The translations under genes and the position numbers were made by a program. The notes under the pieces are model-generated. The model worked only from the letters and a program-made list of their open reading frames with translations, had not been told where the DNA came from and ran no database searches. A stretch of DNA of 64,000 nt from a virus, in IMG/VR virus record IMGVR_UViG_3300045988_123629. One strand, given 5' to 3'. Below, one piece after another: positions 1-24,813 of this stretch; position 1 is the stretch's first letter; each line of letters begins with the position of its first letter.

Positions 1-21
1 CTCAATTAAGAGAGCCTTTAA

Positions 22-1365
22 TTAAATATTTACTGTAGAAGTTCCACAATCAAAGATGACATAATTAGCATTGGTATTAACACCGATTTCATCTAAAGTA
101 GGCATCTTATGAACGTGGTCTTCACGAGCATATTTAGCAGAAGTACCAACTGTAGCCGTTCCAAGATTTTTAGGAGCAACACTTCCAGCGACAGGAAGAG
201 TTTGCTGATTTGGCATCGTAATAGTTAATGTTTGTTCAGTTAAACCAGTAGTATGACCATATTCATCAACTACAACTTTTGGAACTTTGATAGAACCAGA
301 AGCACCATAGCCAGAGACACTTACGTTCGCGGTTGCGCCCTTAGTTGCACCACCAGTCGGACCTTTCTTAGCGTGCTTAGCATCAAAAGTAACGCCATTG
401 GACCCAGAAGTGCCAGTTAAAACTACTACATCATCATCAGTAGCAGTAGCAGTAATAGTCTTTAAAGCGTAAGAGCTATCATCGCCAAGTTTTTCCCACT
501 TAGTGCCATCCCACACAAATTCTAAATGGTTATAAAGAACTACATCGCCTTTTTGAGCATTAGCAAAAGTATAACCAGTGATTTTTGGATCAACTTTAGA
601 GTCTTCGGTAATAGCAACAGTAGCAGCGCCAATAAAATGCATCGCAGAACTAAGACCAAGGTCTCCTGCGGTAATATTAAAGGTTTTTGCAGAAGAACCA
701 TCAAATGTAGCTTTAGTAGTACCACCAACTTGAAGAGTTAAAGCATTAGCCACTTTACCAGCACTTGTAGCATTAGTTGCAGTATCGGCATGAATTGCAT
801 TAGCAACTTTACCAGCGGTAATTGTGATTGTCTTCCCAGTTGAATCAGGAGTAATAGTAATTCCATCACCAGCGACTAACTTTACAGCATCATTTGCTCC
901 AAAAGAAGTAGATCCAACGGTAATAGTTTGGTTATTGTTATTATCTGGAATAGTAATAGTAGATACTGAAACCCAATTTTCACTATTCTTTTCTTTACTT
1001 TGTAAAGTAAATTTATGTTTATCAGTACCATCTTGAACTAATTTATAAGTAGTATTAGTATCCACAGTCATAGTGGGAGTATTTCTAATCTCACTATAAT
1101 CATAAGATGGTTTTGTGGCAGTTTTAGCCCAATCATAAACGTCCGCGGCAAGACCGGAACCCCAAGGTAATTTTCCCCAAGCTGTTTTACCATCACCGAC
1201 TTTAAATAAGACAGTAGGAGCAGTTGTAGTAGTTCCAGAAGTCACAGAAGGCACATAACAAAGACCAACTTCACCAGCTAATAAAACTTTTGCTTCATTA
1301 GTAGTCCAATTGGCCAGAGTATCATACTTTAATTTAATACGAGTATTAAATGTTGTATTAGCCAT
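22..1365 (-). CDS. Tail fibre protein. It has the conserved phage tail-fibre N-terminal domain with the K(V/I)GDG..W..LP motif.
   Basis: A continuous 447-aa ORF ending in TAA. The N-terminus (NTRIKLKYDTLANWT...LLAGEVG...FKVGDGKTAWGKLPW) matches the conserved N-terminal module of phage tail fibres and hyaluronidase-type fibres. The same module recurs at 4800-5306 and 6705-6938. Confidence 0.6.
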   Translation of the reverse strand: MANTTFNTRIKLKYDTLANWTTNEAKVLLAGEVGLCYVPSVTSGTTTTAPTVLFKVGDGKTAWGKLPWGSGLAADVYDWAKTATKPSYDYSEIRNTPTMTVDTNTTYKLVQDGTDKHKFTLQSKEKNSENWVSVSTITIPDNNNNQTITVGSTSFGANDAVKLVAGDGITITPDSTGKTITITAGKVANAIHADTATNATSAGKVANALTLQVGGTTKATFDGSSAKTFNITAGDLGLSSAMHFIGAATVAITEDSKVDPKITGYTFANAQKGDVVLYNHLEFVWDGTKWEKLGDDSSYALKTITATATDDDVVVLTGTSGSNGVTFDAKHAKKGPTGGATKGATANVSVSGYGASGSIKVPKVVVDEYGHTTGLTEQTLTITMPNQQTLPVAGSVAPKNLGTATVGTSAKYAREDHVHKMPTLDEIGVNTNANYVIFDCGTSTVNI

Positions 1366-1449
1366 TTTTAAGAACCTCCATATTTAAAAATATCTATATA
1401 TAAAATAAAGAGGGGAAACAAATCCCCTCTTTATTTATCATTTATTTAA

Positions 1450-4035
1450 TTAAGCCTTTCCACCGTTAAGGATAAGTTCATCACCAGCAGTTTGAACTAA
1501 TTTATTAACATTTATATTATTAACAGTAGCTACACCAGTGTCAGAAACACTAATAGCATTTTCAGCATCAGAGCTGACAATTAAACCTGCGCGAGCTGCG
1601 GTAGCAAGAGGAATATTAACAGTCTTTTCGCTAATTGCGATTTCAGTACCATTAACTTGAATCTTTTCAATTACATTAGGCTGTGCAGCATCCCACTGGG
1701 CGATTTTCTCAGAAGTAATTCCTGCATAATCAGCTTTCTTTAATTCAGCGATTGCATCAGCATTAGCTTTTTCAGCAGTTTCAGCGCGAGTGGTCTCAGC
1801 AGCGATTGCATCAGCATTAGCTTTTTCAGCTGCTTTAGCACGAGTAGCTTCATCACTAATAGCAGTGGCATTGGTACCTTCAGCAGTTTTAGCACGAGTA
1901 GCTTCATCTTCGACTGCTTTCTTATTAGCCGCGATATCTTTAACCATTTGGTCTGCAGCAGAACCATGTGTGGTGATATAAGTTTGAATTTCCTTTAAAG
2001 TATCAACTGCGGCGTCGCCGACTTCTGCGGCTGCAAGGAAGGCATCAACACGAGATTTAACACCAGCAATAGCAGTAGCATTTGCTTGTTCTTTACCTTC
2101 TGCACGTGTTTGTTCAGCAGCAACGGCATCTTTAACAGTCTTAGCTACAGAGCCTTCAACAGTATCAATACCATTTAATTTAGCAATAGCATCTGTATTG
2201 GTCTTAATACTTGCTTTAACAACACTATCATCATAAGTAGCAGCCTTTTGAGCATCAGCAATCATCTGAACGATTGTCTTGTCTGCTGGAATGGTGCCAA
2301 CCTTATCACTTAATGTATTAACAGCAGTCTGAGCATCAGTGCCAGCCTTCTTTGCATCAGCAACAGCAGTATCAACCTCAGTCTTAACAGCATAGCCCTT
2401 AGCTTCGACTTGAGCCATAGTAGTCTTGGAAGTAGCAAGTTCATAAGCTTCTTTTACAGTACCAGTATGCCCTTCGCCAAGGATAGCGGTCTTAGCAGTA
2501 GCAACTTTAGTATCAGCATTAGTGCCAGCAGTTGTAATAGCTTCAGACTTAGCTGTAGCAATTGCACCACTTACACTATTAACATCAACTTTACCTTCAA
2601 GAGCAGCGACTTTCTTACCAATAGCAGAAGTATCACCAACTAAGCTGTCAGCATAAGCTTTAGCTGTTTTACCAACTTCATCCGCATAAATCTTTGCACC
2701 ATGGATAGTTTCACTATCTTTAGTGTCAACATCAGTCTGGCCATCTTCACCGCCAAGAGTATGACGTAAATTATCAACTGCGGTATTAACCGTGCTTACT
2801 GTAGCAGCTTTATTAGTACCAGCATTATATTCGCCATCAAAAGTTAAATTATTTTGTTTGCCATCAAGAGCATCCTGAAGACCATCAATTTTAGAAATAC
2901 CAAGAGTAGGAATATCGGAAACAGCAAGATTTTCGCCTTTAGTTACAAGACCTTTGGCATCATAAGTAATCTTTGTGGCAGTACCAGCAGTAATATCTTT
3001 GTTAGCAACAACAGCAGCATTAGCCGTCTTTTTCACAGCAGCAATAGCAGTTGTATTATCACTATCAGCCTTTTCAAGGGCTTTCATCTTAGTATCGTAA
3101 GCAGATTGATCAACAAAATTACCAGCATCTTGCTTTGCGTTCCACTTTTCAATATCTTCAGCAGTAATACCAGCGGCAGGAAGTTTTTCAACTACACTAA
3201 CACGTCCGGCAAGAGTAGTTAAATCAGCAGCCTTAGCATAATCCTCAATCTTAAGAGCCTTAATGGCGCCATCAATATAAGCCTTTACTTCAGGAGATTG
3301 ACCTTCAGCAGTGCCAAATCCTTTAAGAATAGCTTTTAATTTATTAATATCACCAGTTAAACCATTAACAATATCGGGATGGCTCGCGACCCAATCAACT
3401 AATTCTTTAAAGGTGTCAATAGTACCATTTTCAGTAGCTTTGGTAGCAAAATCGTTAATAGCATCATTAACAGCTTTAGTAACTGAACCTTCACCCGTAC
3501 CATTCAAAACACCAATAGCATCTTCATTAGTTTTAATACGTTTACGAAGACCAGCAGTATCATCAGCACCAACAACAGCTTCAAGGGCATCTACATCAGT
3601 CTATGCTGCAGCAGCTTTATCATCGGCAGTCTTAGCATCGGCAACGCCTTTATCTGCTTGCTTCTGGGCAGCTTCAATTAGAGCATATAAACCAGTAGCA
3701 ACAGTTTCGTCCTGAGTAGCAGAGCCAACTTTCTCAATAAGAGAAGCAACTTGGCCCTGAAGAGTAGAAACATCAGAAGCAAGATCGCCAGAAGCAGTGG
3801 TAGAAGCAAGTTTAACAAGAGTACCAGTCGCATTGCTAATCATATAAGCTTCGCATTTATTATCAGCAACTAAAGTTAAAATCTGACCAACATAGGCGGT
3901 AGCGCCAGATTTTGCATAAGTTTCGAGTTCTGCTTTATTATACCATACCGCAGTAGTATCAACAGGAGCAGGATTACCACGTTTAATAGAAAGTGGGAAA
4001 CCCATATAAGCAGCATCATTCATAATAACAGCCAT
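1450..4035 (-). CDS. Large fibrous structural protein rich in Ala/Thr/Lys, with coiled-coil-like repeats. It is read through one in-frame TAG at 3601-3603.
   Basis: ORFs 3601-4035 and 1450-3507 are in the same frame and separated only by a TAG. There is a GGAGG RBS 9 nt upstream of the ATG at 4035. The sequence has internal repeats (ATRAKTAEGTNATAISDEATRAKAAEKANADAIA...). The stop is TAA. Confidence 0.5.
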
Positions 4036-4058: not shown

Positions 4059-5306
4059 TTAGCCGATGGTGACAGCATAAGTCTCGCCAGCATCAATAGA
4101 AGCAGGCTGATAAACATATACATCATATTTAGCCGCAGTATAACCATTAGCACCTTCAACATCAACTTGAGTGCCCTGTTTTACGAATAGAGCAGTAACA
4201 TCAGCATTGAGTGCGCTAGGCATAAGAACCTTAGTAATCTTGCGACCAGCAGGAACGGCAACAATAACTTTCTTCGCGCCAGCACCAGCACCAAAAGTAG
4301 TGAGAGCGCCAGTACCACTAGCCTGTTTATGCGCAAGGGCGCGAATATTGACAGAGTTTAGAGCCATATCAGCACTGGACATGGGACCCCAGAACATATA
4401 ACGGACACCAGTTAGAGTTTTGGAATTTGCAGTAGCACTACCAGCTTTAATCTTACCTTCAGGATAAGGATTACCAAGATTAGTCTTAGGAACCGCACCC
4501 TCATTATAGGTAGCCTTGGCGGTAATCTTTTTGGAAGTGGCCTCAGCAACAACATTCTCAAAAGAACCAGTTGCAGTGGACTTACTATCAGCAACACCAG
4601 TACAATTGACTTCCCAAGTTTGAGCAGTGATACCAGTAGCAGGACCATAGGTATAATTACCAGTAGACAGAGCTGCAGCATAAGTCAAATTTTTCTTAGT
4701 GCCAATTTCAAAAGTACCAAAACCGCCTTCGGCTGTAAAGGATACAGCAGGATTAGACTTAGAAGGATTGACCTCCTGAGCCATTAAAGAAGAGAGTACC
4801 TATTCAACATTCTTACCCTTAGCAGCAAATTTAGCAGAGCCAGAGGGCTGAGCAAGTGTACCAAAACCAACTGTGTAAGTAATATCTTCATCAAAATATA
4901 CATTATCAGCACGATAATTGCCATCAAAAGCGGCCCAATTAGCACCATCATAGAAATACGCAGTACGAGAAGTTTTACCCTCAACAAACGCATTCTCAAT
5001 AACAGCCATATCTCCCTGAACAGGAGTGGCAATTGTTGCCAGCATATCGGCATCAGTCTTATCTTCAGTTAGAGTTAAGACAGAAACTTTATCACGATTG
5101 CTATTAATAATAGATTTAATAGCATTCTCATCGACACCGGAGTAATTAAGTTCATTCCAAGCTTTAGTACCATCACCAATCTTAATTTTACCAGTGTCAA
5201 CTTCAATACCCATTTCACCTTTTAACAGCACAGGGTTTTTTTCAACCCAAGTGGCTGCTTCATCATTGCGGAGTTGAATACGGGTTTTTAAAGTATTTCC
5301 AGCCAT
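4059..5306 (-). CDS. Tail fibre-like protein. The conserved N-terminal fibre domain (4800-5306) is probably fused to the 4059-4784 segment by read-through of the in-frame TAG at 4800-4802.
   Basis: The N-terminus (MAGNTLKTRIQLRNDEAATW...GEMGIEVDTGKIKIGDGTKAWNELNY) carries the fibre motif. TAG at 4800 lies in frame with the ATG at 4782-4784, and there is no convincing RBS before that ATG. The final stop is TAA at 4059. Confidence 0.4.
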
Positions 5307-5452
5307 ATTAAAATTTCCTCCTTAATAAAAAAAAATTAAGCATTTCCGCCATCTATTAATGAATACTAAGAAGTTTTACCAATTTCAGTAATACTATTAT
5401 CTTCATTAACCAAATAGGGAGTCCATTGTTTATTCTAAAAAATTGAAATTAC

Positions 5453-5674
5453 TTCACCCTTATAATCATATTTTGCGATCCAAGTGCGAGCTTCAATTAT
5501 AGAATCAAAAGAAGTCTTTTTGGTAATATATTTTAAATTACCTTCATCATCATAATAATAAGCCTCTGACTAATTTTCATCAGTTGTTAAAATTAGACTT
5601 TCTTTTGGAATAATACCTTGTTTGATGCTGGATTTAATTTTATTTTTATCTGCATAGACAACATTAAACGCCAT
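5453..5674 (-). CDS. Small hypothetical protein (about 73 aa) with one in-frame TAG.
   Basis: AGGAGGG RBS upstream of the ATG at 5672-5674. A codon-by-codon walk gives MAFNVVYADKNKIKSSIKQGIIPKESLILTTDEN(TAG)SEAYYYDDEGNLKYITKK.... It ends at TGA 5453-5455. Confidence 0.35.
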
Positions 5675-5675
5675 A

Positions 5676-6938
5676 TTATCCCTCCTTTATTATATTATAA
5701 TAATTATTTACTAATTTTTGTTTATATCCAGAAGCAATAAATTCTTCGGGAAGAGGTTTATTAAATTTTCCACCTTTAATAATAATTTCGGCATTATTTA
5801 TACTAGAAAGGATTTTATCACAAGTAGTTTCAAAAATTCCTCCATTAATAATTAAAATACCAGCATTAATATCATCATTATTCTTTTTACATTGGATAAC
5901 TTCATAACCATCATCAGTATAGAAATAACCATCATTTATAGTTAAACTTTTACCAACGTTATAAAGCATACCATAAAAATTACCACCATTAATTTCACAA
6001 ATACCAGCATCATCATTTTTAATAGTAGTATAAGCATTAATAAAAGTACCACCATTAATAATTAATTTAGGATATTCCGCGGACTCGCCTAAATGGTATT
6101 GAGAAAGATAATCGTAATATCCATTCTCAATCATACTAGATAACCCGCCCGGAGAGGAGAATATTCCATCATAAATAGACATTTCACCATGATTTACTAT
6201 TACATAATATCCATTACCTTTTTCATCAATAGAACGTTTATACTCACCATTTATAATAGTTGTATTTCCATTATTCTCAATAGATGCTTTACCATGTTTA
6301 TTACATTCAACGCATCCTTCTCCCGAAATAATTAAAGAAGCGTTATTATTAATTTTAACTGGATTGTCTTCATTATTTAAGATACTAATATTATTTAAAT
6401 CAATATTAATATTTTTTCCTTTTGGAATATCAATATTTTTAACTGTTTTCTACAAAATTATAGTATCATTATTAGAAGCATTTTGAATTGCTTCTTCAAT
6501 AGTAGAATATTTTGTTCCATTAATTTCTACTTCATCAGCAGGTAGTCCTTGGTCTTCACCTTTAATTTTTATAACTTCAACAGTTCCTTGAGAAGATTTA
6601 CCTTGTAATAATCTCCATTTTTCACCATCATAAATATAAAAATCTTCACCAACTAAGCACATTGTACCTTCTTTAGTATTTGGATCTTCAGGTAAAGATT
6701 CTTTCTATCCAATAAAATAAGCGACATCACTAAAATATTTATTTATTTCATTCTTTATCTCATTCTCTGCAAGATAAGGAAGATTATTCCATGTGCGAAT
6801 ACCATCGCCAATTTTTAATCTGCCAGTATCTATTTCAAAACCAGGTTCACCAGGTCCTAAGAGAACATTTTTCTCAGTCCAAGAAGCTGCTTTTCCGCGC
6901 TTAAAATAGAACTTTGATTTCATATAAACATCAGCCAA
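5676..6938 (-). CDS. Tail fibre protein with the conserved N-terminal fibre domain. It contains two in-frame TAG codons (6450-6452 and 6705-6707).
   Basis: ORFs 6705-6938, 6450-6662 and 5676-6182 are in one frame. I checked the stretch 6183-6449 triplet by triplet and found no TAA or TGA. The N-terminus (KNVLLGPGEPGFEIDTGRLKIGDGIRTWNNLPYL) carries the fibre motif. The start is TTG after a GGAGG RBS. The stop is TAA at 5676. Confidence 0.55.
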
Positions 6939-6952: not shown

Positions 6953-7225
6953 TTAATCAATACTACCGCCATCCCAAATGTATGTATTATCAGGATCAGA
7001 AGGTTCGGTGCTTCCACCGCCGCCACTGTTATTACTATTGGATTTCTATTCAACCCAAGTATTATTATCTTGATAAATATATAATTTTGATGATTTAGGA
7101 ATAAAAGCAGTACTGCCAGGGAGCAACGAAATTGTTGGAATTTTTTCAATATCTTCAACAGAATCAACTATGAATTTTTTTAATCCATAATTAACTTTAC
7201 CATTTTGATGTGTTAAAGTATACAT
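6953..7225 (-). CDS. Small hypothetical protein with one in-frame TAG.
   Basis: AGGAGGC RBS followed by an ATG at 7223-7225. A TAA stop follows at 6953-6955. There is one in-frame TAG between them. Confidence 0.35.
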
Positions 7226-7329: not shown

Positions 7330-8823
7330 TTAATAATTGTTGTATGCGGTTAATAAAGTATCTAACTATGTTTTAAAACTAGCATCACCTGATGCTACTT
7401 TAATATTATTTCCTAAAGCAGTTGTTATAGCGTTAAACCAAACTACTAAACGTAGGGGATTAGTATCATTTATAGTAGTAATTGAACTGTTTAAATAAGT
7501 ATTTATATATCCTGCGAAAGTATTTGCTTCACTTCTGGAATAATCTTTCCAAGTAAACGCGGGCCACCAAACCGCGTAGTAAGTTATATTAGATGTACCA
7601 GTAGAAATTGAAGGTGTTGCTCCTTTTTTATAAGTTGCAGTTTTTGCCGAAGACGATGTAGACCATCCTTTAAAAATATAATTATTGCGAGTGGGATAAT
7701 TAGATCCATTTATATTGAAAGAAGAATTAGTGTTAACCGTCTATGATCCTGGACCGCCAGAACCGCCATTTGCATTATAAGTTACAGTAATTGTATTTCT
7801 ACGCCAAATGGCATAAAGAGTTTTATACACAGGACTTGTTGATGATACCTATAATTGCGTGCCAATATCAGCTGAAGAAGAACTAGTTCCCCAACCTAAG
7901 AAAGTATAATTTGCTTTTGTTGGAGTGTCTAAAGTAATAGTTCGACTAGAATTAACACTTGAATAGCTTACTTGCTATCCTTCACTATAACTACCAGATC
8001 CTCCGTTATAATGATAGGTTATATAAGTATAGTAATAAATACGCTACCACATAGCATATAATGTATAAGTTGAACCATTATATGCTTGCACAGGACTACT
8101 TACATAAGCTGATGAATTATCTGTTGTCCATCCTAAAAAATTATACCCAGAGAGTGAAGGTGTATCTAAATATATGTCCCAAGGCTGAGTTGTGCTTGAA
8201 AAAGTATATTGCTATCCATTATTATAACTACCAGATCCTCCATTATAATAATATGTTATATAAGCATAGGATAAATTTTGTCTATAAAAGAATATAACAT
8301 AACTACAATCTCCTACTATATAAGTGGAATCTTGACTCCATGTAGTACCATTACTAATATAATAATTTAAACATTCCTATTCTGAATTACCAGGACAATA
8401 TCCTAAATAAGTATAACTACTACCATAAGAAGGAGCAGTCATACCAAAGCTACCTTGCATCCAACCATTTATATAACTTCCAGTTGTGACATCATAGCAA
8501 GCATACAATGGATCGATGGAGCCTGATCCCCCACCTCCTCCACCACCGCCACTTGATCCTGGGGTAGTAAGAGTGCCATCCCAAATTCCTCCTGTATTCC
8601 ATTGGCCTCCAGTATAATACTATAACCAAACAGTATAATCATAAGTAGTTCCTGGGCTCAGCCCAAGGACATGTACCCAAGGTGTACCAGTAGTTGCATC
8701 ACCCCATACAGTATTTCCATTTATAGTTACTGCCATTTGTCTTTGAACATTATCAGAACTAAGATCCGTTGCTTCAAAAATAGCCCCAGTTTCACTAAGA
8801 CTGGATATGGTATAGCTAGCCAT
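7330..8823 (-). CDS. Repeat-containing structural or adhesin-like protein with a Gly/Ser-rich region and three Listeria-Bacteroides-type (flg_new-like) repeats. It has at least 7 in-frame TAG codons.
   Basis: The RBS is AAGGGGG before the ATG at 8821-8823. I translated 8823 down to about 7680 codon by codon and the frame stays open except for TAG at about 7 positions. It has a G(8) stretch and repeats of YxYNGGSGSY..G(TAG)Q...L.TP....Y.F.GW. The first TAA is at 7330-7332. A TAG at 7366 could alternatively be the real end. Confidence 0.55.
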
Positions 8824-9340: not shown

Positions 9341-9430
9341 TGGTCGGAGATGAGGGAATCGAACCCACTCGAGCGACTGAGCGCACCGGTTTTACAGACC
9401 GGGGTGTCTACCTTATCACGTTAATCTCCG
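9341..9430 (-). tRNA. tRNA-Tyr (anticodon GTA), class II with a long variable arm.
   Basis: Manual fold. Acceptor CGGAGAU/AUCUCCG. Anticodon arm CCGGU-CUGUAAA-ACCGG. T-loop GGTTCGATTCC. CCA is encoded. Confidence 0.7.
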
Positions 9431-9770
9431 AAATATATTTCTTATAATCTTTAATAAATCGCAAATAATCTTCTCGATTATAAGGAATATCATTATATTT
9501 ATTAAAATCATGTGCAAAAGCGCAATAAATTAAAAAATCTAAATGCTTAGATTTTAATTGAACATGCCATTCATAAGAACCATCAAGTCTAGCTCCATAA
9601 GCGCGATGAAATAAAGTATATTCTCCAAACCGCGCTTTATCTGCAAGCACAATTTTAAAATCATCTCGATTATTATGAATATTTAAAACATCATAACCAA
9701 GACCATTTTTAGTAAACTTATGAGAACCACCAAAGGTTTCTTCACAATAATTTAAATAAATATCAAACAT
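9408..9770 (-). CDS. Hypothetical protein (120 aa).
   Basis: ORF from the six-frame track. Its 3' end overlaps the 5' end of tRNA-Tyr by about 20 nt. No recognisable motif. Confidence 0.3.
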   Translation of the reverse strand: MFDIYLNYCEETFGGSHKFTKNGLGYDVLNIHNNRDDFKIVLADKARFGEYTLFHRAYGARLDGSYEWHVQLKSKHLDFLIYCAFAHDFNKYNDIPYNREDYLRFIKDYKKYISEINVIR

Positions 9771-10004
9771 TTTTTATTTGAGGGTTTTAATTAGGTTAAC
9801 CCACAACCTCCGATAGTGTGTCTACTGGACCAAGGAAATACCCGATCGCCGCATTTCGCTCTTTAAAAGATGGACGCTTCTAATCCTACTTCCTATCGTA
9901 TAAAAGGACTTATCAATGACTTTTATACATATTGCCTTTATTACCTTTATAAACAAATTAGCATTACCCAGTGCTACCGCGAGGAGGTTTTGTTTTTAGC
10001 ACCG

Positions 10005-14725: not shown

Positions 14726-14726
14726 A

Positions 14727-14813: not shown

Positions 14814-14909
14814 CATTTTCTTATTTTCATATATTTATTATATAATATTTTTTTTATAAAGTCAAAAGGGGCCGATGTAAAGTATATTCACTTTACATCG
14901 GCCGTCGCG

Positions 14910-16049: not shown

Positions 16050-16076
16050 ACTTAATCCTCTTAATTTAAAATTTAA

Positions 16077-16165
16077 TGGCGAAGGAGAGAGGATTCGAAC
16101 CTCCGGGCCCCAAATGAGGCCAACACCTTAGCAGGGTGCCGCATTCAACCAGCTCTGCCACTCCT
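16077..16165 (-). tRNA. tRNA-Ser (anticodon GCT).
   Basis: Acceptor GAAGGAG/CUCCUUC and G73. Anticodon arm GCACC-CUGCUAA-GGUGU. Long variable arm. T-loop GGTTCGAATCC. CCA is encoded. Confidence 0.7.
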
Positions 16166-16259
16166 TCATAATATATAAATAGAATAATTTACTGCTTAAA
16201 CAGATGATATCCTCGTTTAAACCATACCACACCCTCACCCAACGCCTCAATTATTCTAT

Positions 16260-16496
16260 TTATTTACACCTATATATAATTAGCTTAGGCTTAATACTAT
16301 ATCCACAATAACTACGCCAAGTGCGATAATTACTAAAAATATAATATTTTCTATCAGGTTTAATATTACCAAATAAATTTAAAACTCTCAGTCCTTGCTT
16401 ATAATGAGAAGTTTTATTATTCACTTGATAATTGGCCCAATCAAGAATTTCTTGACCGCTAAAACAAGGATTTTTATAGCTTAAAATATTTTTCAT
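16260..16496 (-). CDS. Hypothetical protein (78 aa).
   Basis: ORF from the track. No motif. Confidence 0.3.
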   Translation of the reverse strand: MKNILSYKNPCFSGQEILDWANYQVNNKTSHYKQGLRVLNLFGNIKPDRKYYIFSNYRTWRSYCGYSIKPKLIIYRCK

Positions 16497-16906
16497 ATCC
16501 TACCTCCTCTGCTTTTCTGGACTTGGAACCAGCCTATGGTAGCATTAGATAGGCGACCGCACTTATCGTTCGCTAGGACAAAACTCGCGCTCATCGCCAA
16601 AGATCAAATCATCAACATCTTTAAACATATCAGACAATCCTCCTTCTTTATTTATTTTTATGAAACAAAATAGAGAGTAGAAAAACAATTCATTTCTATG
16701 GAAGTGAGAGAAAACAACAATCTATATATCAAACGAAAGGGGAAATCAAACAGAAAGATAAGTAAGAAAATGAACTAGATGTAAAAGACTCTCTCTATTG
16801 TATAGTCTTTTGTTTCTATATATTTAAATATATAGAAGAGTAGCCTTTCTAACAGGCATCCCAACAGCCTCGAGCAGCAAAGAGGTTCCTCATTTGTTGG
16901 TCTTTT

Positions 16907-16982
16907 GGTGGGCGGAGACAGAATCGAACTGCCGACGCTAGGATCTTCAATCCTACGCTCTACCAACTGAGCTATCCGCCCA
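16907..16982 (-). tRNA. tRNA-Phe (anticodon GAA).
   Basis: Acceptor GGGCGGA/UCCGCCC. Anticodon arm UAGGA-UUGAAGA-UCCUA. T-loop GTTCGATTC. CCA is encoded. Confidence 0.75.
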
Positions 16983-17195
16983 TAATATTTATATTGCTAC
17001 GATTCCCGATTCTCCACGTAGTCATTCTTCCTTTAAAATTGACTAAAAGAATGTGATATTTTATTTATCGTACTACATCAACAATATAAATAGAACAAGA
17101 CGCTATAAACAATCTTAAGCATATGTATTTTGTACATTGATGTTTTAAAGTTTGCTGTTAGCGCCTTAATTATTCAAAAAGAAAGGAAAGATAAA

Positions 17196-17399
17196 TTATG
17201 CGTTTGCGGGTTCCGCGTTCTTCGGTCTGCGGAACTTTACATAACGCTCACCATCATATCGGGACATCCAAATGATTGTGCCATCCTTAAAATGGAAATC
17301 ATAAGTAAAATCTTTATCCTGTTCATCAACCTGATGGCAAAAGCCCTTACCATACTTCTTAGAATAAACCTTGTCGCCGGGCTTAAACTTAAACTTCAT
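17196..17399 (-). CDS. Hypothetical small protein (67 aa).
   Basis: ORF from the track (MKFKFKPGDKVYSKKYGKGF...). No TAG. Confidence 0.35.
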   Translation of the reverse strand: MKFKFKPGDKVYSKKYGKGFCHQVDEQDKDFTYDFHFKDGTIIWMSRYDGERYVKFRRPKNAEPANA

Positions 17400-17444
17400 T
17401 TAGATATCTCCTTTTGGATTATTTTAATTTACAAGACACAAATG

Positions 17445-17518
17445 AAATATTTGTTGGAATTGAACCAACTACAATTTGTTTGACAGACAAATACTCTACC
17501 AATGAGTTAAAATACTTT
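17445..17518 (-). tRNA. tRNA-Asp (anticodon GTC), AT-rich.
   Basis: Acceptor AGUAUUU/AAAUAUU. D-arm ACUC-AUUGGUA-GAGU. Anticodon arm UUUGU-CUGUCAA-ACAAA. T-arm GUUGG-UUCAAUU-CCAAC. Confidence 0.55.
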
Positions 17519-17597
17519 CAATAGAAAATGATTGCTGTGTGTGTCTTTATTACTGTGATACCTCTTAAAAGAGGGCTTACGGCATTACGCCTAATAT

Positions 17598-18377
17598 TTA
17601 TATGTTTTTCCATTCATCATCAGTGTATAAATTTATAATTTTTTTTGTATTAGGTAAATTATAAGAAATACACCATTTTCTAATGGAATTATCACTTACA
17701 TGATATATATTCGCGATAGAAGTAAAACTTTTATTACGAATCAATTTTTTTAATTTATCACGAGAAGGTCTTTTAATTTTTCGATGTTCTTTAGCAGAAC
17801 ATTTCTAACATTTTTGACCTTTTCCGCTCCACTCTCCACCACATATAGGACAAACTTTTTTTAAAAGTTTTTTCTCTTCTTCTGGTTTATTTTTATCAAA
17901 ACGAGAATAATGTAAAGGATAATTTAATTTTTCATTAAACCAAGTTCTTCCAACATTTATATCTCTAATAGTATCTTTACTAACTTTATATTTTTTAGCT
18001 AATTCCGAATGATTAACTACACCTAACTTATCATTAATTAAAATATTTTGAATATCTTGGACTTCCTAATAATTTAATTTTTGATAAATTACGCGATAAT
18101 CTCCACCTATTGTCTAATTATACTCTGGTTTATAATAATCAATCCAATAAGTTTCTCTACTATTTAGATTATCAATTTCACATTCTTCTAACACTTCAAA
18201 TATAAAATTAGAAACACCATATTTTCTGAAACTTTGATATAAGGGATAATTATAGCTTTTACTCTTTTCATCTTGGGAGCTATATATATGATTTTCCCAA
18301 CGTTCTGCTATATTTCTTGACTATCCAATATAACAATGATTATTTATTTTATTAGTAATTTTATAAATTCCTATCAT
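17598..18377 (-). CDS. GIY-YIG homing endonuclease with about 5 in-frame TAG codons.
   Basis: AGGAGAT RBS followed by an ATG at 18375-18377. The stop is TAA at 17598-17600, in frame. Motif GIYKITNKINNHCYIG(TAG)SRNIAERWENH, which is GIY...YIG...R...H. There is a C-terminal Cys cluster (CPICGG...C(TAG)KC). Confidence 0.55.
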
Positions 18378-18460
18378 ATTACCATCTCCTTACACTATAA
18401 TTAAAATTTTATTTAAGATAATTATAATTTTTCGACCTCGAAAGTATTTAGGTGATGATA

Positions 18461-18534
18461 TGGTTGCGGTCGGGCGATTCGAACGCCGTTTTTGGCTTAT
18501 GAGGCCAACGAGCTACCTTTGCTCCACCACCGCA
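18461..18534 (-). tRNA. tRNA with anticodon CAT (elongator Met or Ile2 type).
   Basis: Anticodon arm UUGGC-CUCAUAA-GCCAA. D-arm GAGC-AAAGGUA-GCUC. T-loop TTCGAAT. CCA is encoded. Confidence 0.55.
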
Positions 18535-18535
18535 A

Positions 18536-18612
18536 TGGTCGGTCAAATTAGAATCGAACTAATATCCCTTGTCTTATGAGAACAATGCTCTACCAGTTAA
18601 GCTATTGACCGA
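18536..18612 (-). tRNA. Second tRNA with anticodon CAT (Met or Ile2 type).
   Basis: Acceptor CGGUCAA/UUGACCG. Anticodon arm UUGUU-CUCAUAA-GACAA. T-arm AUUAG-UUCGAUU-CUAAU. CCA is encoded. Confidence 0.6.
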
Positions 18613-18850
18613 AAATAGGATAGATATAATATTCATGACTATTATATCTATTGGACTTTCTAACCTATCGTCCCAAAATTCTTAATAGACCTCATCAAAT
18701 GGCCAACTTTTGTAGAGGCTTTTGTGCGACCACCTGCGCACTTACATAGACATAAGAATAATGCCAACATATGGCGACCCCGACGGGTGCCGACCCCGCT
18801 ATCTCCAGCGTGACAGGCTGGCGGCTCTGCTGACTGCCCCCAGGGCCATA

Positions 18851-18927
18851 TGGTACTCCCAGCCGGATTCGAACCGGCGACTCCAACGTGAAAGGCTGGT
18901 GACTTAAGTCCGCTTGTCGATGGGAGC
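18851..18927 (-). tRNA. tRNA-Glu (anticodon TTC).
   Basis: Acceptor GCUCCCA/UGGGAGU. Glu-type D-arm GAC-(12-nt loop)-GUC. Anticodon arm CCAGC-CUUUCAC-GUUGG. T-arm GCCGG-UUCGAAU-CCGGC. CCA is encoded. Confidence 0.6.
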
Positions 18928-19003
18928 ATATTAAATAGACTATAAAGCCGTCTATTAGGGCAAATAATATTTCAGTTCCTTACTAAAAGCGATAAAAGTA
19001 AGG

Positions 19004-19078
19004 TGGTGGCGCGAAGGGGATTCGAACCCAACTATCGCGAGAGTGAGAATCTCGCATCCTAAACCGTTAGACGACCGC
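19004..19078 (-). tRNA. tRNA, possibly Glu (anticodon CTC). The stems are imperfect.
   Basis: 3' end ...UUCGAAU-CCCCU-UCGCGCC-A-CCA. Anticodon arm CGAGA-UUCUCAC-UCUCG. One mismatch in the acceptor stem and a weak T-stem. Confidence 0.35.
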
Positions 19079-19520
19079 GTCATATTTAAGCACATCTATC
19101 ATAATCTTGATTTTTGTGCTTTTGTTTTCGCTTAAACGAGCCTTTACCTTTCTTCGCAGGAACTTTAAATCCTCTGCGCCGAAACAATTGAAGATACTCA
19201 TTAAGCTCTTCCTTATTCTTTTTCATATAACTTTTATTCACGGTATTCATCCTCATCTTCATAAAGGGAAAGATCCTGATAAGCAGCATATTCATCACTC
19301 TGAATCTCGCAAGCATAGCTTTCATAGTAATCATTATACATAATTTAAATCTTCCTTTCTTAACTTTCTATAAATATTATAACTTATTTTTTATAAAATG
19401 TCAAAAGATTAAAAGACCAACCAAAAGCGATATTTGTTAACGATGGTCGCCACTCCACCGCCGTCAATATTCACAAACACTTACCATTTTCACACTAACC
19501 TACTAATTAAAGGAGGTGAC

Positions 19521-19604
19521 TGGTGCTTCGAGAGAGACTTGAACTCTCACCATCCGTTCGGATAATCGGGTTTGAGCCGATCGCGTCTGCCAATTCCGCC
19601 ATCA
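19521..19604 (-). tRNA. tRNA-Leu (anticodon CAA), class II.
   Basis: Acceptor GCUUUGA/UCGAAGC and A73. Anticodon arm AUCGG-CUCAAAC-CCGAU. Long variable arm. T-arm GAGAG-UUCAAGU-CUCUC. CCA is encoded. Confidence 0.7.
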
Positions 19605-19614
19605 AAGCATAACT

Positions 19615-19745
19615 AAGAGGATTTTTAAGAAGAATCCTCAAAACTTCTTTCTAATCATCTAATTGGATTTTTAAGAAGAACCCTCAAAACTTCTTTCTAA
19701 TCTAACGGAAGTTTTAAGAAGATCTTCCAACTTCTTTCTAATCTT
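19615..19745. repeat. Three tandem hairpin repeats of about 40 bp (TTTAAGAAGAAyCCTCAAAACTTCTTTCTAATC) immediately adjacent to tRNA-Leu(CAA).
   Basis: Three direct repeats seen by eye at about 19625, 19667 and 19708. Each contains the inverted repeat AAGAAG...CTTCTT. Confidence 0.6.
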
Positions 19746-20155
19746 AATCGCACTTTAGGGCGGCCGTCCCTTCGCGGCGTCACGATTTGCATAATTTACT
19801 GTATTACCATTTTATTTTCCGAAAAAGGCTACAAACCAAAACGGGAGTTATTTAAGAATAACTTCTAGACTACGCTAACTGCTCAAATTTTCTCTTCTTA
19901 GTGGGAAAAACTTTCTTAGCGCTGAAACCAAAATCACTATTAGCATTTTGTATATATTATCTTATTGTATATAAGTTTTATTAATATACCTTATCTATTA
20001 TATCATTTAGTATATTGTATTAATGTTTAATTAATAAGATAATATTTCTGGCTGCTTTTATCACCAATCATATAATTGGTTATATTGGGCAATGCTCCCA
20101 AACTTGCGGTTTACTTAACCGCCGTGCTTACTCTTTACACCATATAACCATATAA

Positions 20156-20235
20156 TGGTGGACCTCGTGAGAATCGAACTCACCTGATTTTCTGTGTGCA
20201 AGACAGACGACCACGCCATGCAGTCCCGAAGCCCG
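20156..20235 (-). pseudogene. Degenerate tRNA-Ala-like element (anticodon arm with TGC). The D-arm is truncated.
   Basis: T-arm GUGAG-UUCGAUU-CUCAC, acceptor 3' GAGGUCC-A-CCA and anticodon arm UCUGU-CUUGCAC-ACAGA are all present. Only about 12 nt lie between the acceptor and the anticodon stem. Confidence 0.35.
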
Positions 20236-20322
20236 AAATGCGACTTATTTATGTATAGATGGAGTCGCCAACCACCTGCGTTCAAAGTCCGCAAGCCTTC
20301 AACGCATTCCCAGGGAGGGATT

Positions 20323-20397
20323 GGTGCTGGAGAAAGGACTCGAACCTTCAGATTAATGATCCTAAATCATTCGTCTATGCCAATTCGACTACACCAG
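20323..20397 (-). tRNA. Class I tRNA with anticodon TAG (Leu-CUA decoding type). It has no long variable arm.
   Basis: Acceptor GCUGGUG/CUCCAGC, A73 and CCA. D-arm GUCG-AAUUGGCAUA-GACG. Anticodon arm AAUGA-UUUAGGA-UCAUU. T-arm GAAGG-UUCGAGU-CCUUU. An alternative fold gives a 6-bp stem with a 5-nt loop. Confidence 0.4.
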
Positions 20398-20637
20398 CAA
20401 ATAAAGAGTTTTATAACCCACATCGCGAAGATTCGAACTTCGTCAACCGTTAGGACTCGAACCAACTTTTACTCTTTTGGATTCCCAGAACCCATAGCCT
20501 TGATTAATGTGAGTATAGCCACTACTTCACAATAAGTTTTACTTCGCTTTCTTATATTTAGTCGGGCGTTTTCCGCAAACCACATACTCTTTCGATCGGT
20601 GGTAGTTTAAACTTACAAAATCCGTGTTAACGCCCCA

Positions 20638-20714
20638 ATGGCGGGAGAGATAGGATTCGAACCTATGACATCTTGTTTAACAGACAAGCGCTCTAACCAA
20701 CTGAGCTACACTCC
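20638..20714 (-). tRNA. tRNA-Asn (anticodon GTT).
   Basis: Acceptor GGGAGUG/CUCUCCC. D-arm GCUC-AGUUGGUUA-GAGC. Anticodon arm CUUGU-CUGUUAA-ACAAG. T-arm AUAGG-UUCGAAU-CCUAU. CCA is encoded. Confidence 0.7.
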
Positions 20715-21206
20715 CATAAAAGAAGGACTTTTTAAAATCCTTACTTTATATATTTATTATATTATATTTTTTTTAAAAAATCAACTTTTCTCTTTTACCC
20801 AAATTTTTTTATTTTCTTTTTTCTTTCTTCATTTTATATAAATATTATATAATATTTTTTATAAAATGTCAATAAGGTCTTTGAATTGGCATTAAATCAT
20901 CTTCTGAAAGAAGCCACTTTTCACCATGCTCATCAAGGACTTCAATCTGATAATTTAATACTCGAATGACAGTACATTTAAGATACTGTCTACGATAACA
21001 ACGACCACGATAAGGGACAAAACAATAAGAATTACCAACTTCAATATTCATTATTTATTTTCTCCTTTCTCAACTTTCTATATATATTATATTATATATT
21101 TTTAATAAAATCAAAAAAGTTCTTTTTGTTTAAGTAGATTTAACAAATTTACCACAATTTTAGTCGAAATCAGGAACACCGCGTGAAGGTATTGTGGATA
21201 GTTCCC

Positions 21207-21288
21207 GCAGGCGCCGTAGGATTCGAACCCACACCGCAAGGTTTTGGAGACCCGCATGCGACCGTTACACCAGACGCCTATAAAACAA
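21207..21288 (-). tRNA. tRNA-Trp (anticodon CCA).
   Basis: Acceptor AGGCGUC/GGCGCCU and G73. Anticodon arm CGGGU-CUCCAAA-ACCUU. T-arm GUGGG-UUCGAAU-CCUAC. Confidence 0.55.
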
Positions 21289-21302
21289 GACCTTAACTTT
21301 GT

Positions 21303-21383
21303 CCGAAAAATGGATTTGAACCATTAACTTAATCTTGAAGGATTATGACCTAACCTTTAGTCTATTCTGGAAGTTATTTTTGC
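21303..21383 (-). tRNA. Irregular Glu-type tRNA with a non-canonical anticodon loop. The best fold gives a 6-nt loop CUUCAA, so the anticodon is ambiguous (UUC or UCA).
   Basis: Acceptor UCCAGAA/UUUCGGA with one mismatch. Glu-like D-arm GAC-UAAAGGUUAG-GUC. Perfect 5-bp stem UAAUC/GAUUA enclosing CUUCAA. T-arm AAUGG-UUCAAAU-CCAUU. It is the first gene after the promoter at about 21390-21440. Confidence 0.4.
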
Positions 21384-21463
21384 TGTAAAGGTCTTTCTTT
21401 ATTTTATAAATATATTATATATTATTTTTTTAAAAATGTCAAAAAAATTTTTAATTGGTTATC

Positions 21464-24161
21464 AATTTCCATGTTGTACTATCTGTTTTTACATATACTC
21501 TACTGTCAGGATGAGCCATATAATAAGTTAAATATACTGAACTATTTGCTGTACTATCACGATAAGGCTTAACATATATATAATAAGTAGTTCCAGCCGT
21601 AACTTTATAACAAATACCAAAATTAGCTCCAGTACCGCCATATTTTTTTGCATAATCATCATCGCTAGCTAAAATATTAGAAGAAGGCTATCCACTATCA
21701 TTAAGAGAAGTAATACTTGATGTTAAATAACCATAAGTGTCTATTGAAGAATTAGAATAAACAATAAAGTCCCCTGAAATAGTAGGAGTAAAAGAAAAAT
21801 ATCGACAAGTGCTTGGAGATAAAGTCCAAGAAGAGGTGTTCTATTTGTTATAAGTGGGAGCAGATATTGACACAGTAGAATAAGCCCAATTTGCTATAGA
21901 CTAAATAGTAATTCTTATATAGCCATTTCCACCATGACCTGTTTCAGATGACCCTGTTGGAGAAATAAATGAAGAATTACCTGCGATAGTTGATGCAGAA
22001 GTTAAATAATAGTTACTATTTAACAAACAACCAGAAGGATAATTAGAAGCAGTGGATGAGGTATATACATAACCAGAACCTCCGCCACCATGATATTTTG
22101 TTCCACCCTGCATATTAGAGAGTGAAACAATTCCACCATACCAGCCGCCTCCTCCAGCTCCATTTATATTATAAGAAGAACTGGATGAATATCCATTTCC
22201 TCCTACTCCAAAGCTATTTCCTGAAGTTTGTGTACTTAGACCTGGACTATTAGACCCTGCTACACTACTGGTGCCCCCACCGGCATCTCCGCTTTCTGTA
22301 TTAGATCCCCAAGAGGTAGCTCCGCCTCCGCCGGCGACAATTACACGAGCGTAGAGAGAGTTTGATCCAATACGAATATCAGAAGCTCCTCCACCACCAC
22401 CGCTTCGAGACATAGATCCGGAGACTCCTCCAGTACCGCCTCCATTAAATCCTCCTGTATAATCATTAGCAGAAGAAGAAATACAACCTCCTTTTCCACC
22501 AGTATATAAATATACCGTTTGAGAGGAAGAAAGAGTTAAAATTCCCGTTGAATATCCACCTTTTCCTCCTATAGCTCCCGAAGAAGCGTCAAAACTAGAG
22601 TTACTATTAGCACCATTTCCTCCCTAAGCCCCCCAACATTCTAATTTATAAGTACCTTTTGGAAGGGCAATATTTTTATAAGTTCCACTATAAGGACAAT
22701 TTAATATATCTCCTGTTTTTAAAGAAGAAGAAGAAGGAATTGAAGAAGTTAAGTCGTAAGTTGCCATGTAACGTCTCCTCCTTTCCAAGTTGTACTATCT
22801 GTTTTTATATATATAGCTTTAGTAGGAGCATAAGTATTAGAATTGATTTTTATATTTAAAGGAGATAATACTGTAATACGAATATATCCATTTTGCCCTC
22901 CAGGATTAGTTTTACTATAGCCTATCGTAGTAGAGGCATTTGTTAAATAATAATTATTGTTTAACAAACAGCCAGAAGGATAATTAGAAGCAGTTGATGA
23001 AGTATATACGTAGCCAGAGCCTCCCCCATTATAAGTTCTATAATCAGCAGAGCTATCACTAACATTAGTAGAAGCACCACCGCCATACCAGCCACCACCA
23101 CCACCACCGGGACCATAATTATAATTGGTAGATCCACTAGCATCAGCACCTTGACCAAAAGATCCATTTGTTCCTGCTTTAGTCTATGTAGCCTTATATT
23201 CTTCAACCGCAGAGTTACCCGTCAATCCGCCACCCTATTTAATAGAAGAATTACTTTCTCCCGCGCCACCACCACCACCACCGGCAACAATTACACGGGC
23301 ATAAAGAGAGTCTTGACCTACGCGGATATCGGAAGCTCCTCCGCCTCCTCCACCTGATGTGTAAGCAGAAGTATACCATCTAATCCTAGAGCTACCTCCT
23401 CCATTAAATCCACCATTAACTATCTTACCTTTTTCACTATCACTTGAATAACTACCATGCCCCCCGGTGTATAAATAAATAGTGGTAGGAACTGGTAAAG
23501 AAAGAATTCCTATAGAATATCCTCCTGTTCCACCCCAATAACTATTTTTTGAACTCGCAGGAGTATAAGTAGTATTACTTTCCTATTTCTAAATCTAAAA
23601 ATAAACTTCTTCATTATCCACGGAATTTGAGCTATCTTTAGTATAAGTCATTACGATAGTAGATCCTGATGATAAAGAATAAGTGCCAGTAGTAGTAAGA
23701 GAACTTGATCCAGAAACCGCATTTAAAACTGTATTTCCTCCAACAGTTAAAGTGACTTTATCATAGCTTGCTTCAGTTTTATAATAATATGAAAATTTAT
23801 AAGTCCCCCCAGAAGTACAAGTTAATGTAGTTGTAGCAGTACTTGAATCTATTCCTCCGTTAGTAGCTATCCAGTCATTTCCGTCTTGACGAAAATAATA
23901 ATTTGAATCATTAACAGTAAAATAACTGGTCGCATTATGAGTTCCTATATATATCCATGAAGTTGTTGTTGATGAAGTTAAAGAACCAGAATAACCAATT
24001 CCGCCATAGCCACCCCAACATTCTAATTGATAATTTCCCGCTGGAAGTTTTACTGGATTTACCGCTCCTGAATAGCTACTATTAATAATATCTCCTGGAA
24101 TAAATTTAATAGAAGAATAATCTGTTATAGAAGTTCCAGAAGGATTATAAGTATTTGGCAT
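21464..24161 (-). CDS. Large Gly/Ser/Thr-rich tail fibre or adhesin-like protein with many in-frame TAG codons. It may comprise one very large gene or two genes.
   Basis: GAGGAGG RBS before the ATG at 24159-24161. ORFs 23595-24161, 22749-22967 and 21901-22413 and the stretches between them are coding in register and interrupted only by TAG. For example, VYF(TAG)I(TAG)K(TAG)ESNTTY at 23583-23597 was verified by triplets. Repeats GGGGGA.DIR.G..SLYARVIVAGGGG are present. The end coordinate is approximate. Confidence 0.4.
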
Positions 24162-24177
24162 TTAAATTCCTCCTCTA

Positions 24178-24732
24178 TTAAGTGAAATACTAAATCCAAA
24201 TATCTCCAACATTTCCGTCTGAAGCGGTGGGAGCAGAAGTGGATACTTTAATATTTCTTAAAATATTATTGTTTAAATAAGAAGAATTAGTAGTGACAGA
24301 TAAATTAGATCCCATAGAACCATTAGTAATCTAAGCTAAGTCTAATCCTGGATTAATGGGTAAAATATAATCACCACTGGATGACCCTAATTGTATCTAT
24401 CCGATAAATGCTTCATCTTTATATAGAAAATTTGCTTCTACAGCAGTATTCTAATGCCAACATCCTAATCCATTATTAGAATGTTCTTTTTTAATATAAT
24501 ATTGAGTTAATTTTAATGCTCCTAAATTATTTATATTTATTGTTATATTAGTAATTGGATTTGTCGCAACATTATTCATATTTGGAATAAGGCCAATAAT
24601 CATTCCGTCTTTATATTCTTTAATAGATTTTGCGGTTCCTATGTAAGTTAATCCATCAGTAGAAGTAATTGGAATAATTTCTAAACTACCACTTCCACTA
24701 CGCATATGTTCTATTGCTTTTGGAATTGCCAT
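24178..24732 (-). CDS. Structural, probably tail-associated, protein with about 5 in-frame TAG codons.
   Basis: AAGGAGG RBS before the ATG at 24730-24732. TAG at 24451 and others downstream. The in-frame TAA is at 24178-24180. The next gene's RBS and ATG follow directly. Confidence 0.45.
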
Positions 24733-24813
24733 TTAAATGACCTCCTTATAAATTTTATTATTTCTATAAAATTTAAAAATTTATAGGTAAGTCATTAATT
24801 TAATTTGGTTAAA

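Follow-up and report, generated by a model that had tools for sequence, protein, structure and literature searches.

Probable reading of TAG as glutamine in part of the genome of a large phage that encodes a CUA suppressor tRNA

A pattern of stop codon recoding in phages was described by Borges et al. (bioRxiv 10.1101/2021.08.26.457843), in which TAG is read as glutamine (Gln), late and lysis genes are recoded, suppressor tRNAs are encoded by the phage, homing endonuclease genes are recoded and replication genes are recoded to a variable extent. Accessory genes for release factor 2 and aminoacyl-tRNA synthetases are frequent, not obligatory, in phages recoded in this way (genetic code 15). For crAss-like phages the recoding of TAG to Gln has been validated by proteomics (PMC9523058). 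The large gut phage phAss-1 of the proposed Phassvirus (OQ749652.1), with a predicted Bacillota host, uses TAG as Gln in 41 open reading frames (ORFs) (PMC10607447), and NCBI already lists a "Caudoviricetes code 15 clade". In E. coli, Gln-charged amber suppressors are known as supE and as Gln-mischarging variants of tRNA-Ser, tRNA-Trp and tRNA-fMet (PMC9976931).

The DNA analysed here is a stretch of 64,000 nucleotides from the virus record IMGVR_UViG_3300045988_123629, called the window. It is part of a large phage whose host is probably of Gram-positive type. An earlier note on its letters claimed that TAG is a sense codon in the late, structural, lysin and homing endonuclease genes at 1-24.8 kb and is absent from early genes. 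We put the probability at about 85% that this phage reads TAG as Gln (genetic code 15) in part of its genome, a reading made from sequence comparison. The recoding phenomenon itself is already established, and the result is a confirmation and refinement rather than a new kind of phenomenon; what is added is a lineage without a close phage in GenBank.

TAG as a sense codon

Transcription in the window runs from 64 kb towards position 1, and almost every gene is on the minus strand. The late part (1-24.8 kb) has 45 in-frame TAGs in 6003 codons (7.5 per 1000), 24.85-43.2 kb has 2 in 5649 codons (0.35 per 1000) and 45.5-64 kb has none in 3801. The total of 45 consists of 43 in thirteen minus-strand genes at 1.4-24.8 kb and 2 others, and still counts a spurious call (11207-11404) which overlaps a tRNA. 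The share of TAG among the CAA, CAG and TAG codons of 1-24.8 kb is 27%. TAG use by the genes of this region is confirmed: for the genes listed in the earlier note all checked coordinates and counts were equalled or surpassed (8 TAGs in gene 7330-8823 against at least 7 claimed), and three further genes were found, 5336-5674 with 3 TAGs, 6953-7225 with 1 and 14475-14630 with 3.

Single Pfam domains cross the TAGs. This is seen for the GIY-YIG domain (residues 2-87) of a homing endonuclease gene (17598-18377 (-), 4 TAGs, Pfam E=5.7e-10), for the NAGPA domain (residues 51-204) of the presumed lysin, a protein with NAGPA (phosphodiester glycosidase) and SPOR domains (12084-12941 (-), 2 TAGs), for an ALK_LTK_GRD domain (residues 32-288) and for Flg_new. 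In close relatives of the window, IMG/VR contigs with 88-97% nucleotide identity to it, most TAGs are found again at identical codons, in up to nine independently assembled relatives, and before as well as after the TAGs it is chiefly the third codon position that varies. Genes were re-predicted with TAG as sense by a simple codon-usage gene caller, a check that the earlier note had proposed: the coding fraction of 1-24.8 kb rose from 0.54 to 0.74 and the genes there became longer (mean 211 aa in place of 115 aa), and neither of the other blocks changed. With TGA as sense, the control, the coding fraction of 1-24.8 kb reached only 0.58.

TAG has been abandoned as a terminator genome-wide with one possible exception. 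On the minus strand of the three blocks 79 genes end in TAA, 26 in TGA and none in TAG (n=105), and 0 of 556 aligned stop codons in relatives are TAG. That late genes end mainly in TAA, as the earlier note had it, holds (24 TAA in 1-24.8 kb), and its single TGA has become three. The possible exception is the conserved ORF 9411-9770, which overlaps the first 20 nt of a tRNA-Tyr gene and whose coding signature ends at a TAG inside the D-loop of this tRNA; it is the sole candidate for a gene end at TAG.

The early block (45717-63832 (-), about 41 small genes, 42-44% G+C, CAG preferred over CAA) uses TAG neither as sense codon nor as stop, and its genes therefore read identically under either code. 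The claim that the ORFs upstream of the late genes are essentially free of TAG thus stands for this block, and there are four exceptions elsewhere: 27632-28432, 35800-36051, 43539-44162 and 44370-44621. In the middle-region gene 27632-28432 (-) the TAG is codon 35 (28328-28330) and is kept in 7 of 7 relatives; against these the gene shows 21 synonymous and 0 non-synonymous changes upstream of the TAG and 244 and 32 downstream of it, and neither Pfam nor PHROGs gave a match. The TAG of gene 35800-36051 (35842-35844) lies 14 codons before the end and is TGG in six relatives and TTG in one; a recent nonsense mutation close to the C-terminus, tolerated or read through, is its probable origin. The two remaining exceptions lie on the plus strand and are treated with the putative origin below. 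Two gene calls were rejected as spurious, 26827-26931 (+), antisense to a peptidase gene, and 44513-44671 (-), which overlaps a better plus-strand ORF.

The TAG-bearing genes of the late block, all on the minus strand, begin just past the boundary at 24.8 kb with a recoded operon (21451-24732) of three genes: 24178-24732 (4 TAGs, no match in Pfam or PHROGs) and two genes for proteins with the ALK/LTK glycine-rich domain, 22749-24161 (5 TAGs) and 21451-22767 (4 TAGs). The three TAGs reported at 23583-23597 were found there, inside gene 22749-24161 (protein VYFxIxKxES). The gene at 13280-13876 has 5 TAGs, and its TAG use is as claimed; its product can be called only HNH-like, with Pfam matches to HNH_3 and HNH marginally under the cut-offs. 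A small ORF of 51 aa (14475-14630) carries 3 TAGs. The Flg_new (Listeria-Bacteroides repeat) gene 7330-8823, whose 8 TAGs are the maximum for one gene in the window, lies downstream of the suppressor tRNA described below and is followed by a terminator (7325-7293). A cluster of structural and tail fibre genes completes the series: 6953-7225 (1 TAG), the Mtd_N-domain tail fibre gene 5676-6938 (2), 5336-5674 (3), a second Mtd_N-domain tail fibre gene 4059-5306 (1) and the structural gene 1450-4035 (1). The AAA+ ATPase gene and gene 13973-14491 are free of TAG as had been noted, but gene by gene this is not significant (8 and 3 Gln codons); the assignment of 13973-14491 to the CYTH family was not borne out, Pfam at E<=1 giving no CYTH match.

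The amino acid at TAG and the suppressor tRNA

All window genes were aligned codon by codon with those of the relatives. The TAGs of the window stand opposite TAG 177 times, CAA 23 times, CAG 9 times at genuine sites, TGG 6 times and other codons 12 times; the six TGG alignments are all from one site, and 4 further CAG alignments at a spurious antisense ORF were kept apart from the 9. At 16 of the 25 variable genuine TAG sites a Gln codon (CAA or CAG) is found in at least one relative, and in the reverse direction the TAGs of relatives are mostly opposite CAA or CAG in the window. As CAA is two mutations away from TAG, mutational proximity fails to explain this alternation, and synonymy does explain it. 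Both TAGs of the lysin gene are CAA in one relative, and each of the three TAGs of the small ORF 14475-14630 alternates with CAA.

In the GIY-YIG gene 2 of the 4 TAGs are at conserved motif sites, YIG-x-S and YN-x-T. An alignment of 120 homologues has Q in the TAG column in 113 at the former site and in 110 at the latter, and S is never seen in the YIG-x-S column. Homologue P0001, which is 93% identical with Q at all four positions, was rejected as independent evidence, its own DNA having TAG and its protein having been translated with code 15, and P0071 is likewise recoded. Because of these two database proteins the DNA of TAG-free homologues was checked instead, and three with standard-code DNA (P0087, P0105 and P0002) have CAA at both motif positions. 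The earlier note had compared YIG(TAG)S with YIGSS and leaned on this partly towards serine (Ser); the motif of this subfamily is YIGQS, and the argument falls. Judged from the alignments TAG is Gln, not Ser, and our confidence is high that it would be decoded as Gln via a phage tRNA.

The amber suppressor tRNA with anticodon CUA at 10005-10093 (-), which the earlier note had placed there, is found by both ARAGORN and Rfam (Rfam tRNA 57.8 bits). It is 89 nt long and has a U1•U72 mismatch, G2-C71, G73, G10-C25, the anticodon loop CUCUAAA and no encoded CCA; its D- and T-loops are of canonical form, and for the 21-nt variable region, largely unstructured, no more than 3 bp are predicted. Five related contigs conserve it at 98-99%. 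Three close relatives (loci L012, L014 and L017, on 3300029860_000005, 3300045988_132576 and _118866) have at the corresponding place an unrelated 73-nt tRNA(CUA) with U1•C72, G73 and a short variable loop. In two phages further removed, the CUA tRNA has C1•U72 or U1•U72, with G73, and the 77-nt suppressor of phAss-1 has U1-A72 and G73; an exception is the CUA tRNA of locus L030, with G1-C72 and A73.

The bacterial Gln identity set consists of G73, U1-A72, G2-C71, G3-C70, G10, U35, G36, A37 and U38, and an amber tRNA-Ser has been turned into a Gln acceptor by changes at pairs 1-72 and 3-70 (PMC9976931). Of these elements U1, G2-C71, G73, G10, U35 and A37 are present in the suppressor. From its acceptor end we infer charging with Gln by host enzymes, either glutaminyl-tRNA synthetase or the route via glutamyl-tRNA synthetase and amidotransferase. 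Amber suppressors are in general prone to glutaminylation.

Some observations weigh against the reading as Gln. The suppressor departs from the identity set at U72 (the mismatch), C3-G70, A36 and A38, A36 being required by the amber anticodon, and its 21-nt variable region is unlike that of any ordinary tRNA-Gln. A gene for a release factor or an aminoacyl-tRNA synthetase was not found by Pfam or PHROGs among the scanned window ORFs of at least 330 aa. The variable TAG sites without a Gln codon have codons for Ser (4 sites), Glu (2), Tyr (1) and Ala/Val (1) in relatives; these sites are mostly within Ser-rich, fast-evolving proteins.

Three alternatives to Gln have to be weighed. TAG could be Ser (or Tyr or Leu), the suppressor resembling a class II tRNA with a long variable arm; the synthetases of such tRNAs (Ser, Tyr, Leu) largely ignore the anticodon. 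The length of 89-90 nt, the 21-nt variable region and G73, which is also the discriminator base of bacterial tRNA-Ser, speak for this, as do the Ser codons found in a relative opposite four variable TAG sites; the YIGSS argument had pointed the same way. It is nevertheless very unlikely in view of the Gln codons at 16 of 25 variable sites and of the YIG-x-S column, and also since the predicted stem of at most 3 bp differs from the 6-bp arm of the phage's own tRNA-Ser, and since close relatives swap in the 73-nt short-loop tRNA at the same locus while the same TAGs are retained. A different proposal is that the TAGs are true stops, the genes being pseudogenes, split genes or the result of assembly or sequencing errors and the long frames accidental. 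Under the standard code (code 11) short ORFs still tile the region, 39 genes making up the coding fraction of 0.54. This proposal is already contradicted by the present results, and its chance is negligible: TAGs at the same codons in the independently assembled relatives, selection in one frame on both sides of them and the interruption of single Pfam domains all speak against it, TAG never ends genes elsewhere, and the pattern of gene ends at TAG with new starts just downstream, which the earlier note had named as the sign of true stops, is not seen, there being no restart codons or ribosome-binding sites after the TAGs. Least credible of all is that the CUA tRNA is tRNA-Pyl and TAG pyrrolysine. 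For this there is only the ARAGORN label, which the program assigns to every CUA anticodon. tRNA-Pyl is compact with a 3-nt variable loop; the suppressor has a normal GG-containing D-loop, the T-loop TTCGAAT and the 21-nt variable region. No PylS-like or pylBCD-like ORF was seen among the large ORFs scanned with Pfam and PHROGs, and the alignment of TAG with Gln already contradicts this reading.

The suppressor lies in a tRNA array (9341-21371 (-)) of about 23-25 tRNA genes together with small ORFs and the homing endonuclease, AAA+ ATPase and lysin genes. The array lacks a tRNA-Gln with a UUG or CUG anticodon. The tRNA-Tyr(GUA) at 9341-9430 has a long variable arm, a low Rfam score (35.6 bits) and C1-G72 as first pair, which is an archaeal/eukaryotic Tyr determinant (PMC9976931). 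Three tRNA-like genes are odd: 21301-21371 with a 2-base "anticodon" in ARAGORN, 10399-10482 with a 4-base anticodon (tccg) in ARAGORN at relaxed threshold, and 11341-11424 (85 nt, Rfam 35 bits), which default ARAGORN missed. Contigs _110853 and _118866 have an extra 80-nt tRNA-like gene with anticodon UCA.

Promoters, a putative origin and the question of timing

Sites which match TTGACA-17-TATAAT at 11 or more of 12 positions number 46 in the window against about 4 expected from shuffled sequence. About 37 of them are on the minus strand at 46-63 kb, approximately one per small gene, many with an extended -10 TG, and each early-block promoter is followed by a strong ribosome-binding site; on these grounds 46-63 kb is taken to hold host-polymerase-dependent early genes. 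A crude ORF count had hinted at a gain from recoding TGA in the 46-64 kb block, and the gene-model comparison gave no real gain; the ORFs there are short because the early genes are small and numerous and each have a promoter. No site of this quality lies in 1-12 kb or 21.45-24.8 kb, the parts that hold the structural genes. A strong intrinsic terminator with a 13-bp stem and a T-run (24819-24848 (-)) is placed exactly at the border of TAG use, with the TAG-free gene 24852-25157 on its upstream side and genes that use TAG on the downstream side. The promoter map and this boundary terminator are independent of TAG and therefore support the early/late reading. The types of promoter and ribosome-binding site in the window are typical of Bacillota; together with the avoidance of TAG in early genes this gives indirect support for a host which uses the standard code.

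Six repeats of about 190 nt occur in the early region, with the promoter -35 at 46554, 48708, 51251, 53546, 55342 and 59543 (-). In each, a T-rich tract precedes a consensus promoter, and a GC-rich hairpin with a U-tract comes immediately after it in place of a ribosome-binding site and gene. The hairpin arms vary compensatorily between the repeats (CCGCCCG/CGGGCGG, CCGGCCG/CGGCCGG, CGGCGCGC/GCGCGCCG). These repeats may be small RNAs or promoter-terminator modules.

A second class of promoters, with a near-identical AT-only spacer and downstream sequence (TTGACATTTTTAAAAAAATAATATATAATATATATAGAAAATAAGAAA), is found at 12074, 14865, 19404, 20872, 21442, 32935, 46154 and 46293 (-), the first five within or at the tRNA array. 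The one at 12046-12074 (-) matches the sigma-70-type consensus perfectly and precedes the suppressor tRNA by about 2 kb. No terminator is predicted between P12074 and the suppressor tRNA, nor between P14865 and the HNH and lysin genes. The suppressor, lysin and both homing endonuclease genes may thus be transcribed by the host polymerase. Immediately upstream of the middle gene 27632-28432 there is a perfect TTGACA-17-TATAAT promoter (28485-28457), and the gene has an AAGGAG ribosome-binding site.

The gene 43539-44162 (+) codes for a rep-like winged-helix protein of 207 aa (PHROG 3396, E=5.5e-6). It has six TAGs, which make up 6 of its 8 Gln-type codons and are conserved in relatives; the adjoining ORF 44370-44621 (+) has one. 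On both sides of the rep-like gene there are at least 8 copies of an iteron, TGGTCAAAA(A)TTTCT, with a spacing of about 21-22 nt (43355-44225 (+)), and the GC skew changes sign around 42-46 kb, at the iteron region. The region 43330-44240 looks like a replication origin with its initiator gene. Three tandem 40-nt repeats (GGGTATTATTGACTTCGGGCATAAATGCCCTCGTTTATAG), each with a small hairpin, adjoin it at 44638-44779.

The confinement of recoding to late genes, as claimed in the earlier note, holds for the structural, lysin and homing endonuclease genes against the TAG-free early block and fails for the rep-like gene and the middle gene 27632-28432; the late placement of the array genes is also less clear-cut, the tRNA array with the HNH, GIY-YIG and lysin genes being downstream of consensus sigma-70-type promoters.

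A mechanism can be proposed in which recoding acts as a timer. A suppressor charged with Gln would accumulate until it out-competes release factor 1, and full-length tail, lysin, homing endonuclease and rep-like proteins would then be made only after expression of the phage tRNA gene. For messages which can be transcribed early (lysin, HNH, GIY-YIG, 27632-28432) the TAGs would impose a delay at translation. Our confidence in the timer is moderate. Two findings weigh against it: the suppressor tRNA itself is apparently behind a consensus host-type promoter and may be made from the start of infection, and the rep-like gene is heavily recoded.

Those two findings would be accommodated by a reading in which TAG does stand for Gln and is no timing device, the suppressor being made from host-type promoters from the outset. 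The skew of TAG would then have two causes: genes translated before the phage tRNAs are made would have no tolerance for TAG, and in the AT-rich, fast-evolving late and mobile genes CAG would drift to TAG. Consensus promoters do lie upstream of the tRNA array, including the one about 2 kb before tRNA(CUA). The TAG-rich genes are the AT-richest (about 30% G+C) and almost lack CAG, and the higher-GC structural genes 22-1365, 1450-4035 and 4059-5306 retain CAG and have 0-1 TAG. Recoding of the middle gene as well as of the rep-like gene points in the same direction. Against it stand the retention of the codon-35 TAG of 27632-28432 in all seven relatives, the abrupt change in TAG use which coincides with the terminator, and the TAGs of the lysin and homing endonuclease genes in spite of their host-type promoters, which fit the delay proposed for other recoded phages. 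We regard the reading without a timer as rather unlikely, though it deserves to be kept in mind.

Going one step further, we offer tentatively, as an idea that we think somewhat less probable than its opposite, that a convergent design of the acceptor end (a weak or unpaired N1:N72 with G73, G2-C71 and G10) could let the host Gln machinery charge unrelated tRNA bodies, and that accumulation of the suppressor could time lysis, the initiation of replication and intron or homing activity. In close relatives the 90-nt suppressor body is interchangeable with the ordinary 73-nt suppressor at the same locus. TAG placed early in genes which the host polymerase can transcribe at once (codon 35 of 27632-28432, lysin, homing endonucleases) and the six TAGs of the rep-like gene would allow such timing.

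The phage group and described recoded systems

Besides the early block the window consists of a short plus-strand module (43.3-45.3 kb (+)), a middle block (24.85-43.1 kb (-)) of about 37 genes of mostly unassigned function, among which Pfam and PHROGs recognize a peptidase, a phosphoesterase and a DUF5052 lipoprotein, and the late block (1-24.8 kb (-)) with tail-fibre-like and other structural genes, the NAGPA and SPOR protein, the HNH-like and GIY-YIG genes, the AAA+ ATPase and the tRNA array. A terminase gene is not present in the window. Its relatives are contigs of 159-196 kb. Megablast of 1-24.8 kb against 50,697 GenBank phage records gave zero matches and thus no close described relative. 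Among cultured phages, large ones of Enterococcus and Bacillus come nearest, with proteins of about 40% identity: the AAA+ ATPase has 42-43% identity, over 85-89% of its length, to the ATPases of phages of the Enterococcus EF24C and Bacillus Deep Blue types, and for an exonuclease-like protein the identity is 39% with Enterococcus phages and 29% with phAss-1. The DUF5052 lipoprotein recurs at 96% identity on the contig CAMELE010000001.1 (163,874 bp; locus L055), which GTDB/ENA lists as a metagenome-assembled genome (MAG) of an "uncultured Mollicutes bacterium"; judged by its size, this contig is probably a phage genome of the same group that was binned as bacterial.

For annotation the consequence is that the standard code breaks about a quarter of the late region into fragments, with tail fibres, the lysin and two homing endonucleases missed or truncated, and that code 15 is needed for the IMG/VR relatives and for the 164-kb "Mollicutes" MAG contig. 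Recoding of TAG to Gln would be extended to a group of phages of about 160-196 kb whose nearest cultured relatives are the standard-code Enterococcus and Bacillus phages. The window also makes a compact test system, which brings together a TAG-free, promoter-marked early block, host-type promoters in front of recoded genes, a putative iteron origin whose rep-like gene is recoded, and two interchangeable suppressor tRNAs.

Herelleviridae-type Bacillota phages (SPO1-like; EF24C, Deep Blue) share the AAA+ ATPase at the identity given above. In SPO1 a strong host-type promoter stands before each of the many small early genes, and tRNA genes and homing endonucleases occur as well; the window block 46000-63000 resembles the host-takeover early module of SPO1-like phages. 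To our knowledge the cultured members of the Herelleviridae type use the standard code.

Two systems differ in the tRNA or the amino acid. A class II tRNA-Ser of the supD type does not fit, with a variable arm of at most 3 bp in place of 6 bp and Gln opposite TAG, and neither does the pyrrolysine system, with canonical D- and T-loops, a long variable region and no pylS or pylBCD in the Pfam scans. The Gln-mischarged suppressors of E. coli have in common with the window tRNA the CUA anticodon with U35, a weak or broken 1:72 pair and G73 favouring glutaminylation (PMC9976931); the E. coli cases are laboratory mutants, whereas the phage features are natural, conserved and recurring in unrelated phage suppressor sequences.

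With phAss-1 (PMC10607447) the window shares a large tRNA array containing Sup-CTA and the lack of a detected dedicated synthetase. The kinship is distant, the genome of phAss-1 is 136 kb against about 160-196 kb for the group of the window, and its suppressor is an ordinary 77-nt tRNA. The pattern in the window is that of the code-15 phages of Borges et al. (bioRxiv 10.1101/2021.08.26.457843), and the match to a published late-biased pattern of recoding, which the earlier note had drawn, is upheld. In common are in-frame TAGs concentrated in the genes for structure and lysis, early genes that can be read with the standard code, a phage tRNA(CUA), a recoded homing endonuclease, variably recoded replication genes and the loss of TAG as a stop. 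The phage of the window differs from them in lineage, in having no release factor or synthetase gene in the scanned window ORFs, and in the suppressor, with its 1:72 mismatch and its unusual variable region of 21 nt.

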